Shown: positions 52,303 to 64,000, counted from the first letter of the stretch. The stretch is 64,000 nucleotides of DNA from Phycisphaerae bacterium (GCA_018335035.1 JAGXKT010000002.1:53106-117105), one strand, 5' to 3'. A program made the numbers and translations. Notes: generated by a model from the letters alone, not told the origin.

Positions 52303-53031
52303 CTACTCGACGCGTCCGATGCGGATATCCAGGTCCTCCCGCCGTTCGAGGCGATCCTTGGCGCCGTCCTTGATCCAGAGGATGCGGTCGGATCGGGCGA
52401 GCATGTTGTGGTCGTGCGTGGCGGTGATGACGGTGACGCCGTGGTTGTCGCACAGCCCGCGCAGCGTATTGATGATTTCCTCGCCGGTGTGGAGGTCGAG
52501 GTTCGCCGTCGGCTCGTCGGCCAGCATGATCGTCGGGTTCATCGCCAGGGCGCGCGCGATGGCGACGCGCTGCTGCTGCCCGCCGGACAGCTCGCCGGGC
52601 CGGTGGTCGAGACGATGACCGAGCCCGACTTCGGTGAGGACCTCGGCCGCCCGGTCGGCGGAGGCCCTGTGGTTGGCTCCGCTGAGCAATACGGGCAGCA
52701 TCACGTTGCGCAGGGCACTCAGCGCGGGAATGAGGTTGAACGCCTGGAAGATGTATCCGATGTGGTGATTGCGGATGTATGCCAGTTCCGCGCTGGACTT
52801 CTTCGTCAGGTCCACTCCCGAGATGGTCACCGTGCCTTCGGTCGGACGATCCAGCGCGCCGATCATGTTGAACAGCGTGCTCTTGCCCGAGCCGCTCGGA
52901 CCCATGACCGAGAGGTACTCACCGTGACGGACGTCCAGGTCCATGTCCCGCAGGGCGTAGATCTCCTGCCCGCCCATGCGGTAGATCTTGCTCAACTCGC
53001 GACACGCGATGATGACTTCGTTGCTGCTCAT
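52303..53031 (-). CDS. ABC transporter ATP-binding protein (LolD/MacB type)
   Basis: GPSGSGKST, IGYIFQAFNLI, LSGGQQQRVAIARAL, ADEPTANLD, ATHD. Confidence 0.95.
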   Translation of the reverse strand: MSSNEVIIACRELSKIYRMGGQEIYALRDMDLDVRHGEYLSVMGPSGSGKSTLFNMIGALDRPTEGTVTISGVDLTKKSSAELAYIRNHHIGYIFQAFNLIPALSALRNVMLPVLLSGANHRASADRAAEVLTEVGLGHRLDHRPGELSGGQQQRVAIARALAMNPTIMLADEPTANLDLHTGEEIINTLRGLCDNHGVTVITATHDHNMLARSDRILWIKDGAKDRLERREDLDIRIGRVE

Positions 53032-53038
53032 GATTTGC

Positions 53039-61477: not shown

Positions 61478-61498
61478 TCCTGTGATCCACAAGCTCGA

Positions 61499-64000
61499 TT
61501 ACTCGATGCGCATCGCCTCCATCGGGGCCAGGCGAGCGGCCACCCAGGCGGGGTACACCGCCGCCAGTGCCGATATCACCACGCCGATGACAAAGGACAG
61601 CCCGGCCGTGGCCAGAAGGTCCACCGCCGGCAACTGCTGCAACGCCGTCGTGCCGTATTGAAGCGCGGTTCGCAAGATGCCCAGAACCAGTCCAAGCACC
61701 AGGCCGATGATGCTGCCGGCGACCCCTTGCAGGCACGATTCCAGCACGAAGTTAATCATGATGAACCCGTCCGTGGCACCGAGGCACTTCATCGTGGCGA
61801 TTTCGCGGAATCGTTCGGTGACGCTCATCAGCATCGCGTTGGCGATTCCCACGACGCAGACGATGAAGCTGACGACCAGCAGCCAGATCGTGCGTGCCGA
61901 GAAGCCCATGAAGCCCGTTTTGACCGTCAGGGCGGAGACCTCGGCCTCCGTCTCGGCCAGTTCGCGTGCGGCCAATTGCCGCTCGGCGACCTGTTCGACC
62001 CGCTCGGCGGTCAGGCCCAACGGCTTCAGCGAGGCGACTTTGCCGAGCAGGTCGTTGACCCACTCCGCCTCGGCTTTGTCCGTCGCGACACGCATCAGCG
62101 CATCGGCGGTGACATCGTCTTCGGACAGGTCGTTCCTGTGCTTGGCCAGCTCCTCGCGCAGCAACGGAGCCGTCACGAGCGTGCGCAGGCGCTCGGCGTC
62201 GCGCTTGAGCCCGACGTGTTCCTGTATCTTCCGGAGGTCCTTGTCGCCCATGTGAAATTCGGCGCGAGCCAGGGCGGCCTGTGCCTTCTCGTCGGCGGCC
62301 GCCAGCAGGTCCACGGGCGAACGCTCGGCAAGCAGCGCCGGTTCATCGGACGCGGCATCGCCCCGCAGGGCGGCGATGGCTTCGGCATGGCCGGCTGCAA
62401 TACGCGCGTGCAGTGCCGGCGCGCGGCGGCGATCGTCGAGGTAGTGCTCGAACAGCCGATACCCCGCCTCCTGCGGTACCGCCGCGCCGAGCCACCTCTC
62501 GGCGAAGCGTACGTGTTGCGCCATCCAGCCGGGCAGCGGCAGTGTCACGCCCTGCTCGCGCAGGGCCTCGCGCAGCGCGGCGGCGGGATCGGCGGCCGGG
62601 AACGCACCGTAGTTGTCCAGGTGTTGTTCGGGCGTCATGGACGCGAGAAAATCCAGATAGCTTTGCGTCCGCGCCGGCAGCTTGACGAGCAAGGTCATCT
62701 GCGCGTCGGTCAATTCGCCCCAGTTCCGGTATTCGCGGCGTTCAGCGTCGCCCAACGATCCGGACGTGAACCGCTCGGCGACCTGGTCGGCCGTGAGCGG
62801 CTTGCAAAGCCGCAGTATCCAACGGCGGAACGTTTTCGCCGTGTCGGTGGCGGGGGGAGTGTCCGGGAGCATCTCGAAAAGAATCTGCCCCGGCTCGACG
62901 GTGTCGCCCTCGGCCGCGTGCCAGGAGATGATCGTCCCCTTGCTCATCGTGTTGACCTTGGTCATGACGACGGGCACGACGTTCTCGGGCCGAGCGGCTT
63001 GCCGCGCCGCGTCCGCCTCGAGTGACTCGAGGTACGCCTCGACGCCGGCGTCACTCTCGCTCAGGTAGGCGACCGGCTCATGGACGGCGACGGTCTGTCC
63101 GGCGCCGGCGACGATCTTCGCCAGTCGCCCGCGCCGTGCGGCTTCGACCGTAACGGCGGCCTTGTCCGTCTCGGTCAGGGCGGCCTGGTGAATCCGCTCG
63201 GTGGAGAGGGACGCGCCGCCAAGGCCGCGCGCCTTGTCGGTCAAGGAAACAAGCCAGTCGGCGCCGCTCGACGAACTGACCTCCTCCAGTAGCGACCGGG
63301 CGTTGACCTCGTGCGGTTCGATATTGCGCCGCTCAGCGAGCCGTGCCTTGAGCAGAGACGAGTTTAACGCCGCTTCGATCCGCTGGGCGTCGTGGGCGTA
63401 AGCGGCCTCGCGCTGCACCGTCTGCAGGTCTTCCCGCTGGATGCGGAAGCCCACCGCGTCGGCCGACAGCGCCGCGTGCAGCGCGTCGGCATCCGTCGTG
63501 GCCAGAACATCGAGCGGCTCGCGCTCATGGAGAAGCCGGCCGGGCTGGTTGAGCGTTTCGATGGCCTCGGCGTGTCCGGCGATGACGCGTTCGCGCCACG
63601 CGCGGGTGGTCCACCAGTCGCGGAGGAAGCCCTCAAAGGCGTCGAGCGACGTCGGCAGCGGCTTGCCGATCTCGGAGAGGTAGTCCGTCATCCGTTTCAG
63701 CGCGTCCTCGTTGAGCCGCGCGGTGTCGGCGTCGGACGCCTCGTGATCGATCAGGGCGCCGAACATGCGCGGTCCGCTGTGCCGGGTTCCGTTCAGGGCG
63801 CGGCGGCGGCGGGCCTCGGTCATCTGCGTGAAGAACGTCAGGTACGTCTGCTGGCGACGGGCGACATCGTGCAACTGCCCGAGCTGCTCGTCGTTCAGTT
63901 CCGCCCAGGCGCGCATCTCGTTCCAGCGCGGCCCGCCGCGCTCGGCACGGGCGATCGTGCCGCTCAATTCCGCCAGGTTCGGCGGTTCGGCGAGCCGGCC
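61499..64000 (-). CDS. FtsX/MacB-like ABC permease with duplicated extracytoplasmic domain and permuted lipoyl module; 5'-truncated by the window edge
   Basis: Frame is open to base 64000. C-terminal GIANAMLMSVTERFREIATMKCLGA...LES...YPAWVAARLAPMEAMR; internal ETDKA and GTIISW..EGDTVEPG. Confidence 0.85.
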   Translation of the reverse strand, partial: GRLAEPPNLAELSGTIARAERGGPRWNEMRAWAELNDEQLGQLHDVARRQQTYLTFFTQMTEARRRRALNGTRHSGPRMFGALIDHEASDADTARLNEDALKRMTDYLSEIGKPLPTSLDAFEGFLRDWWTTRAWRERVIAGHAEAIETLNQPGRLLHEREPLDVLATTDADALHAALSADAVGFRIQREDLQTVQREAAYAHDAQRIEAALNSSLLKARLAERRNIEPHEVNARSLLEEVSSSSGADWLVSLTDKARGLGGASLSTERIHQAALTETDKAAVTVEAARRGRLAKIVAGAGQTVAVHEPVAYLSESDAGVEAYLESLEADAARQAARPENVVPVVMTKVNTMSKGTIISWHAAEGDTVEPGQILFEMLPDTPPATDTAKTFRRWILRLCKPLTADQVAERFTSGSLGDAERREYRNWGELTDAQMTLLVKLPARTQSYLDFLASMTPEQHLDNYGAFPAADPAAALREALREQGVTLPLPGWMAQHVRFAERWLGAAVPQEAGYRLFEHYLDDRRRAPALHARIAAGHAEAIAALRGDAASDEPALLAERSPVDLLAAADEKAQAALARAEFHMGDKDLRKIQEHVGLKRDAERLRTLVTAPLLREELAKHRNDLSEDDVTADALMRVATDKAEAEWVNDLLGKVASLKPLGLTAERVEQVAERQLAARELAETEAEVSALTVKTGFMGFSARTIWLLVVSFIVCVVGIANAMLMSVTERFREIATMKCLGATDGFIMINFVLESCLQGVAGSIIGLVLGLVLGILRTALQYGTTALQQLPAVDLLATAGLSFVIGVVISALAAVYPAWVAARLAPMEAMRIE

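Follow-up and report, generated by a model that had tools for sequence, protein, structure and literature searches.

The stretch of DNA analysed here (64,000 nucleotides, hereafter the window) carries at positions 52303-64000 five tightly packed, co-directional minus-strand genes, whose products and recognisable parts are as follows.

52303-53031, minus strand: ATPase 2, 242 aa, an ABC ATPase of the LolD/MacB class
53039-55060, minus strand: OPT-like polytopic membrane protein, 673 aa, with a Pfam OPT match and about 12-13 hydrophobic segments by hydropathy
55057-60636, minus strand: giant fusion protein, 1859 aa, with a pseudo-M28/PA head, three extra transmembrane (TM) helices, an FtsX unit and a cytoplasmic tail
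55060-55596, minus strand: giant residues 1681-1859, conserved C-terminal domain, predicted from the topology to be cytoplasmic
55597-56946, minus strand: giant residues 1231-1680, a single FtsX unit (TM1, periplasmic domain of about 300 aa, TM2-4)
57076-57330, minus strand: giant residues 1103-1187, three additional TM helices preceding the FtsX unit (hydropathy)
57352-58341, minus strand: giant residues 766-1095, a domain rich in beta structure, then a helical stalk reaching the membrane (AF2 secondary structure)
58342-58779, minus strand: giant residues 620-765, C-terminal half of the M28-like fold (VIA)
58780-59517, minus strand: giant residues 374-619, coiled-coil insertion with four helices of 40-53 residues (DSSP of the AF2 model)
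59527-60414, minus strand: giant residues 75-370, N-terminal half of the M28-like fold, into which a PA domain is inserted (Foldseek, VIA, profile)
60565-60636, minus strand: giant residues 1-24, signal peptide and lipobox LSGC (sequence)
60629-61492, minus strand: ATPase 1, 287 aa with a TTG start, an ABC ATPase of the LolD/MacB class
61499-64000, minus strand: FtsX permease A, 910 aa in full, with a Pfam FtsX match; ORF open at the window end
63062-63172, minus strand: permease A residues 354-390, lipoyl (barrel-sandwich) like segment in an insert (Pfam)

The tight packing described in the original prediction is borne out by the ORF listing of the window: both of its overlaps are exact (4 nt at 55057-55060 between the giant and OPT-like genes, and the coding overlap of ATPase 1 with the giant at 60629-60636), and the 7-nt spacing between the ATPase 2 and OPT-like genes is matched. 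The 21-nt gap that it placed between permease A and ATPase 1 holds if ATPase 1 begins at the ATG at codon 6, but shrinks to 6 nt with the TTG start. The GTG start of the OPT-like gene lies on the stop of the giant gene, and the two genes are translationally coupled. Pfam agrees with the predicted set of FtsX permease, ATPase, FtsX fusion, OPT-like protein and ATPase, weakly so for OPT, and the cluster does run past the window, as had been anticipated. The permease A gene extends to position 64231 (full ORF, L005:10605-13337), and upstream of it lie genes for a PqqD-like protein of 117 aa (L005:13353-13706) and for a 300-aa protein that falls in no known family. The conserved operon of which the five genes are part comprises at least six: PqqD-like, permease A, ATPase 1, giant, OPT-like and ATPase 2.

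Both ATPases retain intact Walker A, Q-loop, signature, Walker B and H-loop motifs and match Pfam ABC_tran (105.6 bits for ATPase 1, 127 bits for ATPase 2). LolD is the top-scoring NCBIfam model for each, at 217 and, for ATPase 2, 237 bits, below its cut-off of 307.75; the two proteins are 48% identical, and ATPase 1 has an N-terminal extension of about 45 aa. Pfam FtsX is matched by residues 784-901 of permease A (61.7 bits) and residues 1560-1671 of the giant (37.6 bits), whose FtsX unit also gives profile matches to MacB, LolC, LolF and YtrF chains. The NCBIfam equivalog models all score below their cut-offs (lolCE, 55.5 against 362 bits; FtsX_Gneg, 40 against 255; MacB, 39 against 966), and MacB_PCD (PF12704) was found in none of the window proteins, with 36 and 31 bits in the giants of distant paralogous clusters. 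By their profile matches, both permeases can be assigned to the single-unit MacB/LolC class of type VII ABC systems, of which MacB, LolCDE, FtsEX and BceAB are the textbook cases of mechanotransmission.

In permease A, hydropathy places TM1 at residues 32-50, followed by a periplasmic domain of about 730 aa; at 910 aa the protein compares with about 490 aa for most of its orthologues. Its insert matches Biotin_lipoyl at 36-37 bits (cut-off 22.1), beside which HlyD_3 (17.3 against 22.2) and HlyD_D23 (15.7 against 30) remain below cut-off, and was not found in the L006, L014 and L033 orthologues, so that it appears to be lineage-specific. The earlier statement that the visible part of the cluster lacks an MFP or TolC stands in that no such gene is conserved in it, but the lipoyl/HlyD-like insert means that "no MFP-like element" is not quite right.

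Among the known systems, MacB and MacAB-TolC share with this locus an FtsX unit whose TM1 and TM2 are separated by a large periplasmic domain, LolD/MacB-class ATPases with intact motifs and matches to MacB-chain profiles. In contrast to MacB, however, the ATPases are separate genes, MacB_PCD is undetected in the window proteins and the MacB model falls far short of its cut-off; the conserved cluster contains no MFP or TolC gene, and MacB has neither the dead-peptidase head, nor the extra TM helices, nor the OPT-like or PqqD-like partner that are all present here. Like LolCDE/LolDF, with its LolC and LolE, the operon encodes two different single-unit FtsX permeases, LolD is the best model for both ATPases, and LolC and LolF profiles are matched. 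Yet LolCDE has one ATPase where there are two different ones here, the lolCE score is low, other FtsX genes of about 455 aa in this genome fit Lol better by size, and the cluster is sparse in both phyla surveyed, unlike the essential Lol system.

For the periplasmic head of the giant, AF2 returned a confident model (pLDDT 89), in which an M28-like fold is interrupted by a coiled coil of 250 aa (pLDDT mostly >90 in the insertion block). Foldseek with this model retrieved 2ek8 (E 2.2e-15) as well as TfR1 and GCPII, and VIA superimposed it on 1rtq_A with Z 26.4 and rmsd 2.8 A (258/291 residues aligned, model range 75-763); residues 766-1095 were barely covered by the fold searches. Profile comparison with the PDB also gave 2ek8 (E 8.3e-10), along with nicastrin chains (E 2.2e-4, 22.6 bits), while Pfam Nicastrin (PF05450) was seen in the L006 orthologue only, at 19.8 bits and below its cut-off of 25. 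The proposed PA/M28 fusion is thus upheld for M28 both by Pfam (Peptidase_M28, 24.8 bits against a cut-off of 21.3) and by fold, and for PA by fold but not by Pfam, which recognises the PA domain weakly in a distant paralogue and not in the window giant. The description of the giant as a lipoprotein fits the LSGC lipobox of the window protein, but a Cys occupies that place in 5/30 aligned orthologues, and lipidation is therefore no conserved feature of the giant.

Active M28 enzymes such as the Aeromonas aminopeptidase carry co-catalytic zinc ligands and a catalytic Glu in the pattern HxD, D, EE, D, H. In the HMMER alignment of the giant to 2ek8, the HHD of 2ek8 faces 'aplD' and its EE faces 'qa'. 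When 30 giant orthologues were read by eye, the first His was present in 4 and the Glu-Glu pair in 0; the place of the bridging Asp holds Asp in 8/30, with an invariant Arg beside it. The M28 catalytic residues are missing in 30/30 of these proteins, and an active M28 peptidase is ruled out because neither the zinc ligands nor the Glu-Glu pair is kept. The pseudo-peptidase ectodomain foreseen in the original prediction is in this way confirmed, and the modelled head has the form of a catalytically dead PA+M28 fold resembling that of nicastrin and the transferrin receptor. Nicastrin (in gamma-secretase), TfR1 and GCPII likewise have the PA+M28 fold without, or without needing, catalysis, and their M28-fold ectodomain serves as a substrate receptor on a membrane complex; the giant differs from them in being bacterial, in its fusion to an ABC permease, in the 250-aa coiled-coil insertion and in having no known protease partner. 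We know of no type VII ABC system with a receptor of the nicastrin/transferrin-receptor type, or with a partner of secondary-transporter fold.

Within the giant the head is least conserved, with identities of 24-52%, compared with 42-74% in the C-terminal part. The three additional TM helices match no Pfam family and are highly conserved, with invariant columns in 30 orthologues; the C-terminal domain, for which there was neither a Pfam match nor a PDB sequence match, also has many invariant columns in the orthologue alignment. The C-terminal module of the giant defines 1388 clusters at 50% identity (E <= 1e-30). The extra helices and the tail are among the best-conserved parts of the giant, which is what protein-protein interfaces would lead one to expect.

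A dead peptidase fold and long coiled coils joined to an FtsX unit bring to mind envelope remodelling of the FtsEX-EnvC kind, in which ATP would move the coiled-coil/dead-peptidase module so as to activate or position a hydrolase, with the OPT-like protein taking up the released peptides. In the abstracts of PMC11491553 and PMC7468199, FtsEX is described as working with EnvC, a coiled-coil adaptor with a degenerate peptidase domain; in published abstracts, FtsX and its ATPase are proposed, with EnvC, PcsB or RipC, to set in motion a coiled coil of the periplasm together with a degenerate peptidase domain. The dead domain of the giant, however, is M28/PA and fused to the permease, whereas that of the FtsEX partners is LytM (LytM/M23 in EnvC) or CHAP; OPT-like and PqqD-like genes are present here, no hydrolase gene is conserved among the flanking ORFs of 80 related loci, the FtsX models score far below their cut-offs, and the system is sparse and often multi-copy, unlike a division function. 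We consider this explanation unlikely.

The 673-aa protein downstream of the giant may belong to the OPT superfamily, although the assignment is a weak one. It matches Pfam OPT (PF03169) at 36.9 bits, above the gathering cut-off of 25.8, over profile positions 134-421, or at 42.4 bits when summed with a second stretch at 529-618 of the 623-position profile; there was no NCBIfam match and, using a profile, no PDB sequence match, so that the OPT-like character originally proposed is retained on a match that is weak and partial. Membership rests on this Pfam match because fold prediction failed (AF2 with 18 close sequences gave an unusable model, pLDDT 40.2). A paralogue related to the window protein at E 5.7e-30 covers nearly the whole OPT profile (62.5 bits), and the language-model neighbours of the protein fall in OPT and DUF6785 clusters. 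The shared ground with the OPT/YSL transporters, which we take to be TC 2.A.67, consists of the Pfam match above gathering score and the near-full-profile match in the paralogue; in contrast to them, the window protein is very distant, and its gene always has those for an FtsX giant and an ABC ATPase as neighbours, a setting in which we know of no characterised OPT protein. Characterised OPT members are importers, and to our knowledge the bacterial members of the superfamily, together with the related bacterial and archaeal DUF6785/DUF6784 proteins, are almost uncharacterised. Across phyla the OPT-like protein is 55-88% identical, and its relatives are encoded in at least 584 stretches of the species-representative genome collection.

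Genes in the order PqqD–FtsX–ATPase–giant–OPT–ATPase were met again in 80 retrieved loci, which come from Phycisphaerae, Kiritimatiellia, Lentisphaeria, Verrucomicrobiota and one MAG each of Omnitrophota and Fibrobacterota, so that the set does co-occur in other genomes, where its absence would have counted against the original prediction. In counts made by hand from the neighbourhood tables, the giant lies immediately upstream of the OPT-like gene in 80/80 loci and an ATPase immediately downstream of it in 73/80, the other seven comprising four contig ends and three loci without the gene (L028, L045 and L064). ATPase 1 is found upstream of the giant in 59 loci, which are all those clearly extending beyond its 5' end (among the remaining 21, the reach of the contig past that end is doubtful in L019 and L064); permease A is present in 56/56 loci with flank, and a PqqD match lies upstream in 47 of these and is absent from 9. 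Because it recurs in 80 independent loci, the arrangement is more than chance. Clusters were present in 46/301 Planctomycetota and 27/201 Verrucomicrobiota genomes, often as several paralogues per genome; this sparse distribution means that the function is dispensable and does not tell which function it is. The PVC bacteria that carry the cluster are of importance in sediments, in salt lakes and in the guts of animals.

The gene order can be divided into permease A plus ATPase 1 and giant plus OPT-like plus ATPase 2, and the operon might then hold a pair of ordinary MacB-type pumps together with an OPT-family permease unrelated to them, with no machine formed at all, the more so as any contact between the proteins is a prediction. 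This is the least probable of the explanations that we weighed: the genes stand in the same order in Planctomycetota, in Verrucomicrobiota (Kiritimatiellia and Lentisphaeria included) and in the Omnitrophota and Fibrobacterota MAGs, the giant/OPT and ATPase 1/giant junctions overlap or abut in many orthologous ORF calls too, and distant paralogous clusters only 27-28% identical still keep the giant-OPT pair. An accessory, sparse and multi-copy system that combines peptide-recognising folds with an FtsX pump, and whose head is its least conserved part, might also serve in sensing or resisting peptide antibiotics, through target protection as in BceAB together with Sap- or SbmA-like import and neutralisation in the cytoplasm. 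Such a role seems very unlikely to us, as the flanking ORFs of the 80 loci include no conserved two-component system or regulator and conservation of the OPT-like protein is higher than is usual for a defence gene.

The PqqD-like protein matches Pfam PqqD (PF05402) at 41.8 bits, above the cut-off of 23.4, and shares this with PqqD and the RiPP recognition elements (RREs); it differs from them in falling below the cut-off of every curated NCBIfam PqqD subfamily, in having no known RiPP enzyme conserved next to it and in its conserved N-terminal extension. Neither a RiPP enzyme nor a precursor peptide was found among the conserved flanking ORFs of the 80 loci, for which ORFs of at least 90 aa were clustered, so that short genes could escape; in this genome, no known RiPP enzyme (radical-SAM enzymes included) was found beside the PqqD-like gene, and no small ORF of note lies upstream.

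The set of genes is real, conserved and uncharacterised, and is built on type VII ABC systems. A literature search returned no published description of the combination, and the set matched no characterised transporter, in agreement with the earlier judgement that its architecture has no characterised counterpart; it is therefore probably a new peptide-handling machine. The M28 aminopeptidase fold without its catalytic set, OPT and PqqD are all peptide-recognising, and they therefore point to a peptide substrate. Our tentative reading, which we regard as quite possible, is that the operon products form one composite inner-membrane machine for a peptide or peptide-like ligand, with uptake slightly preferred. 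ATP hydrolysis by the LolD-like ATPases would move the periplasmic domains, on the mechanotransmission principle of type VII systems; the dead-peptidase head would hold a free peptide end of the ligand, passage through the membrane would be by way of the OPT-like protein, and the PqqD/RRE-like protein would bind the same ligand in the cytoplasm, giving a route from periplasmic capture through the OPT-like protein to a cytoplasmic receptor. In such a machine the two FtsX proteins may act as a single heterodimeric motor served by both ATPases, as originally proposed, or as separate pumps.

The same parts could be run in the opposite direction: a cytoplasmic peptide held by the PqqD-like protein would pass through the OPT-like protein to the periplasm and the dead-peptidase head, and two MacB-like pumps would push it outward, much as MacAB and PvdRT do with substrates that have already reached the periplasm; in some lineages the fused 300-aa domain may modify the peptide. 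We know of no characterised type VII ABC system that imports, since those known to us all expel, extract or transmit force outward, and this favours export and counts against the composite uptake machine. The best-known task of PqqD/RRE domains is to present a precursor peptide to its enzymes ahead of export, the nearest NCBIfam PqqD models are all RiPP 'peptide chaperones', and in L072 the PqqD domain and the 300-aa domain form one 440-aa frame, an arrangement typical of peptide-modifying enzymes and one that argues for export. The long coiled coils of the giant and the coiled-coil/HlyD-like segments of permease A also recall membrane-fusion-protein hairpins, but the lipoyl/HlyD-like insert is confined to the permease of this genome, the clustered ORFs conserved nearby include no gene for a precursor peptide, a known modifying enzyme, an MFP or a TolC-like protein, and no notable small upstream ORF occurs in this genome. 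On balance export is rather unlikely. Only slightly do we prefer uptake to export, because the characterised OPT members known to us import, because the conserved genes nearby (flanking ORFs of the 80 loci) include none for a biosynthetic enzyme, a precursor, an outer-membrane duct or an MFP, and because there are several paralogues per genome. The composite machine must also accommodate an OPT match that is weak and partial, protein contacts and co-transcription that are predicted from the arrangement of the genes, and the 9/56 flanked loci without a PqqD match.

A more specific form of the uptake machine, which we hold to be doubtful, would have permease A, the giant and the two ATPases make up a heterodimeric type VII mechanotransducer, whose nicastrin-like head selects peptides by their free end and gates an OPT-fold channel, with an RRE-type protein as acceptor or donor. 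If true, an OPT system driven by ATP and gated by a receptor would be seen here for the first time, as would a bacterial equivalent of the use that nicastrin or the transferrin receptor makes of the M28 fold. The system could reveal a new coupling of ATP hydrolysis to an OPT-type channel, and finding its substrate would assign a role to a considerable number of membrane proteins that lack annotation.

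Five genes near the end of the window, together with a PqqD-like gene beyond it, form an operon that is conserved and whose coding regions overlap; in it an OPT-like protein is always paired with a giant FtsX fusion protein. The original prediction of five packed, co-directional genes with short overlaps was confirmed by the ORF list and by Pfam.

Genes of the operon in the window (ORF list; Pfam matches)
52303-53031, minus strand: ATPase 2, 242 aa, ABC_tran
53039-55060, minus strand: OPT-like protein, 673 aa, OPT at 36.9 bits (cut-off 25.8)
55057-60636, minus strand: giant, 1859 aa, FtsX and Peptidase_M28 (24.8 bits)
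60629-61492, minus strand: ATPase 1, 287 aa, ABC_tran
61499-64000, minus strand, open at the window end: permease A, FtsX

The overlaps of the giant with the OPT-like gene (55057-55060) and of ATPase 1 with the giant (60629-60636) are exact, as is the 7-nt spacing between the OPT-like gene and ATPase 2; permease A and ATPase 1 are 6 nt apart if a TTG start is taken, and 21 nt apart for the ATG at codon 6. A scan of the operon for promoters and terminators gave counts no higher than in shuffles. The source genome (2.74 Mb in 82 contigs, 96.8% complete, the window being C59:53106-117105) has Phycisphaerae and Planctomycetota MAGs as its closest relatives, and its DNA was found in four sequencing runs, three of them from salt lakes in one study and one from a microbial mat with a small share; there was no RNA run carrying it among the runs listed. 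Directly downstream of ATPase 2 lie an mcsA-like gene (UVR motif) and an mcsB-like gene (ATP:guanido phosphotransferase) at 50670-52225 on the minus strand of the window, neighbors that recur after the cluster only in the close relatives L006 and L015.

Homologous loci (numbered L) were sought with a degenerate pattern in a single genome for each species, a scan that returned at least 599 stretches, at least 584 of them encoding a relative of the OPT-like protein; the best 80 of these at least 584 loci were fetched with their flanks, a sample in which the more divergent arrangements are under-represented. They belong to Phycisphaerae and other Planctomycetota, to Kiritimatiellia, Lentisphaeria/Victivallales and other Verrucomicrobiota, and to one MAG each of Omnitrophota and Fibrobacterota. 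Synteny was counted by hand from tables of tblastn matches to the window proteins and from ORF calls. In all 80 loci the giant lies directly upstream of the OPT-like gene and shares its strand; an ATPase gene lies directly downstream in 73 of 80, four of the misses being contig ends and the other three loci, L028, L045 and L064, lacking the gene. ATPase 1 precedes the giant in 59 loci, which are all those that clearly reach past the 5' end of the giant (in the other 21, this reach is uncertain for L019 and L064). Where flank was present, permease A was found in 56 of 56 loci and a PqqD match upstream in 47. The expectation that the gene set would co-occur elsewhere is thus borne out by the same order across the 80 fetched loci, and mere co-location of the genes is to us the least probable of the readings weighed here.

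The system is accessory. Of 301 Planctomycetota genomes sampled, 46 carry the OPT-like protein at E <= 1e-20 (26 among the 191 of high quality); in the phylum to which the Kiritimatiellia locus belongs, 27 of 201 do at E <= 1e-50, and some genomes have up to three to five matches. Some carriers have complete genomes in a single contig, such as G001 of the same class, which hints that there are isolates. The largest number of paralogues seen was in G305, the Omnitrophota MAG that carries L060, with five separate OPT-like matches at 39-60% identity. Paralogues that are only 27-28% identical are still found directly behind a giant FtsX protein with MacB_PCD and FtsX matches, and the giant of one such cluster has weak M28 and PA matches. 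A distant paralogous cluster, L092:5017-17849 on the minus strand, encodes a 2288-aa giant (MacB_PCD, FtsX) and an OPT protein with a near-full-length Pfam match, after which comes a protein of 1313 aa that contains NHL repeats and DUF5107. At 50% identity the C-terminal module of the giant comprises 1388 clusters (E <= 1e-30); the best matches listed for it are mostly 1550-2100 aa long.

The layout of the giant was read from its sequence, hydropathy and alignments. It starts with a signal peptide (a lipobox Cys is present in only 5 of 30 orthologues) and continues with a periplasmic head of ~1080 aa and three conserved TM helices (1103-1187), for which no family was matched; a short cytoplasmic loop ends in the Arg-rich stretch with which FtsX TM1 typically starts. 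A single FtsX unit follows at 1231-1680, its profile matching MacB, LolC, LolF and YtrF chains, and then a conserved 180-aa tail without a sequence match in Pfam or the PDB. From this layout we infer a topology with the head outside and the tail inside. An ADOP-like duplicated permease was considered and rejected on the grounds of the one FtsX match and of the lack of any family for the preceding helices.

The AF2 model of the head, built with 30 orthologues, has a pLDDT of 89 and a pTM of 0.87. Foldseek aligned it with PA-bearing M28 aminopeptidases (2ek8, E 2.2e-15), transferrin receptor 1 and GCPII, and VIA-align with the Aeromonas aminopeptidase (Z 26.4, 2.8 A, 258 of 291 residues, model range 75-763). 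The M28 fold is predicted by this model to be complete yet interrupted, residues 374-619 being modeled as four coiled-coil helices of 40-53 residues. As a single sequence the head gave only chance matches to solved structures; its family profile matched 2ek8 (E 8.3e-10) and nicastrin (E 2.2e-4) in the PDB. In the profile alignment to 2ek8, the HHD of the enzyme stands opposite 'aplD' and its EE opposite 'qa', residues that supply metal ligands in M28 enzymes. Of the 30 head orthologues, 4 keep the first His, 8 have an Asp at the bridging-Asp place, which adjoins an invariant Arg, and none has the Glu-Glu pair. Arg316, Asn320 and Asp303 are invariant. On these counts the head is a dead peptidase fold, and the pseudo-peptidase that had been proposed for it stands, as to both fold and lost catalytic set. 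Nicastrin and the transferrin receptor would be its nearest functional analogues, the head having the M28 fold without being a peptidase. In L030 and L072 the giant has ~100 aa more in the coiled-coil region of its head (alignment columns 690-790), an insert with hydrophobic stretches that resemble TM segments.

No protein of the set is better conserved than the OPT-like one, whose identity across phyla is 55-88%. A search with it yielded 3317 relatives at E <= 0.001, and its paralogues are 27-49% identical to it. We assign it to OPT because of its Pfam match, which is above the cut-off and partial; its homology (E 5.7e-30) to a paralogue whose match spans almost the full OPT profile at 62.5 bits; its language-model neighbors; and names in the source records, such as 'peptide transporter' and 'OPT/YSL family transporter', that count as annotation rather than as a test. 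The ESM Atlas feature neighbors, to be read as leads only, were its own family (0.98), DUF6785/DUF6784 (0.87-0.88) and canonical OPT (0.85). NCBIfam held no match to the protein, and its profile found none among solved structures at E <= 1; an AF2 model from an 18-row alignment (pLDDT 40.2, pTM 0.30) was too low to use. A complex prediction with residues 1095-1264 of the giant scored 0.08 (mark 0.32), which speaks neither for nor against binding.

One further family recurs in the flanks when ORFs of at least 90 aa are clustered, a DUF6785+DUF6784 protein of ~685 aa at 33 of 80 loci, whose domain content Pfam confirmed for three representatives. In Kiritimatiellia its gene lies between the PqqD gene and permease A.

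DUF6785+DUF6784 genes among the ORFs flanking the clusters
L027:836-2887, plus strand
L028:4-2088, plus strand
L025:9514-11631, plus strand

The source genome has two such genes away from the operon, at C39:223107-224666 and C66:6846-8378, one of which adjoins PMT_2 glycosyltransferase-like and M48 peptidase genes; the Atlas clusters of this protein are mostly archaeal. Kinship of the OPT-like protein with DUF6785 is suggested by the language-model neighbors, the profile-profile scores (probability 0.8% with one sequence; 20.9%, E 0.0011, over 232 columns with alignments) being too weak for a claim of homology.

Both ATPases keep the Walker A, Q-loop, LSGGQ-type signature, Walker B and H-loop motifs. 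With these motifs intact, and with the two proteins 48% identical to each other and each 57-83% identical to its own orthologues, they represent two distinct, catalytically competent lineages that have been maintained. Their best scores were against the LolD, MacB, DevA and FtsE models, all of them under the equivalog cut-offs. Permease A, 910 aa in full (L005:10605-13337, L005 being the locus of the source genome that reaches past the window), has TM1 at residues 32-50, followed by a periplasmic domain and the FtsX three-helix block. Its orthologues are mostly ~490 aa, the periplasmic domain here being ~350-400 aa longer. This insert has a lipoyl-like match of 36-37 bits (63062-63172 in the window, minus strand) with weak HlyD matches adjoining, and looks like a fragment taken in from a membrane fusion protein. 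We treat it as lineage-specific, since these matches are absent from the permease A orthologues of L006, L014 and L033.

The permeases of the cluster belong to the type VII ABC superfamily, and by analogy the cluster may work as members of that superfamily do. It fails the curated models of LolCDE, FtsEX and MacB and should not be filed under them. That it might be the Lol or FtsEX system of the cell was rejected, with scores far under the cut-offs, other FtsX genes in the genome and a sparse distribution. Among flanking ORFs of at least 90 aa at the 80 loci, no MFP, TolC-like protein, regulator, known peptide-modifying enzyme or hydrolase is conserved nearby. A role in remodeling, like that of FtsEX-EnvC, is in our view improbable, and defense against peptide antibiotics decidedly improbable.

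The original prediction that the cluster extends past the window also proved correct, the rest of permease A, a PqqD gene and a gene for a protein of ~300 aa lying upstream on the contig. The PqqD-domain gene, 15 nt upstream of permease A (L005:13353-13706; PqqD at 41.8 bits), was called by the ORF finder as 268 aa, and an alignment of 20 orthologues puts the real protein at ~117 aa.

The gene upstream of the PqqD-like gene
L005:13748-14704 (64642-65598 on the scale of the window, past its end), minus strand: gene for a ~300-aa protein, 41 nt upstream of the PqqD-like gene

The ~300-aa protein, which has no family match in Pfam or NCBIfam, is 44% identical to the product of the same-position gene of L009, and its gene is unrecognizable at the distant locus L082. 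Upstream of it in the source genome lies a xylose-isomerase-like TIM-barrel gene (L005:14806-16116, minus strand), unrelated to the operon and conserved beside the cluster in 0 of 80 loci. At L072 the ~300-aa domain and the PqqD domain share one frame, an ORF of 440 aa that gave only chance matches in a sequence search of solved structures. The ~300-aa protein may be a peptide-modifying partner of the RiPP recognition element; in the source genome, the stretch upstream of the operon was searched for a short ORF that could encode a precursor, and nothing notable turned up.

Known aminopeptidases, oligopeptide transporters and RiPP recognition elements recognize peptides, and from the presence of these three folds together the ligand would be a peptide or a peptide conjugate. 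We tentatively read the cluster as a composite peptide-handling machine and slightly favor uptake, at somewhat less than even chances, on account of what known OPT proteins do, the lack of a conserved biosynthetic or outer-membrane partner and the many paralogues. Export is rather unlikely; it would accord with the joining of PqqD to a domain of no known family at L072, with the usual role of PqqD domains and with the fact that, to our knowledge, all characterized type VII systems act outward. For a peptide-handling machine, both ATPases would drive movement of the periplasmic domains in the manner of type VII systems elsewhere. The route through the membrane would be the OPT-like protein, and the giant's extra helices and its tail, which are conserved, might serve as interfaces. 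Within the literature open to full-text searches, to which most subscription journals and supplements do not belong, no description was found of this gene set, of DUF6785/DUF6784 or of a bacterial nicastrin-like FtsX fusion. The cluster is large and conserved, has an unusual architecture and lends itself to direct testing.
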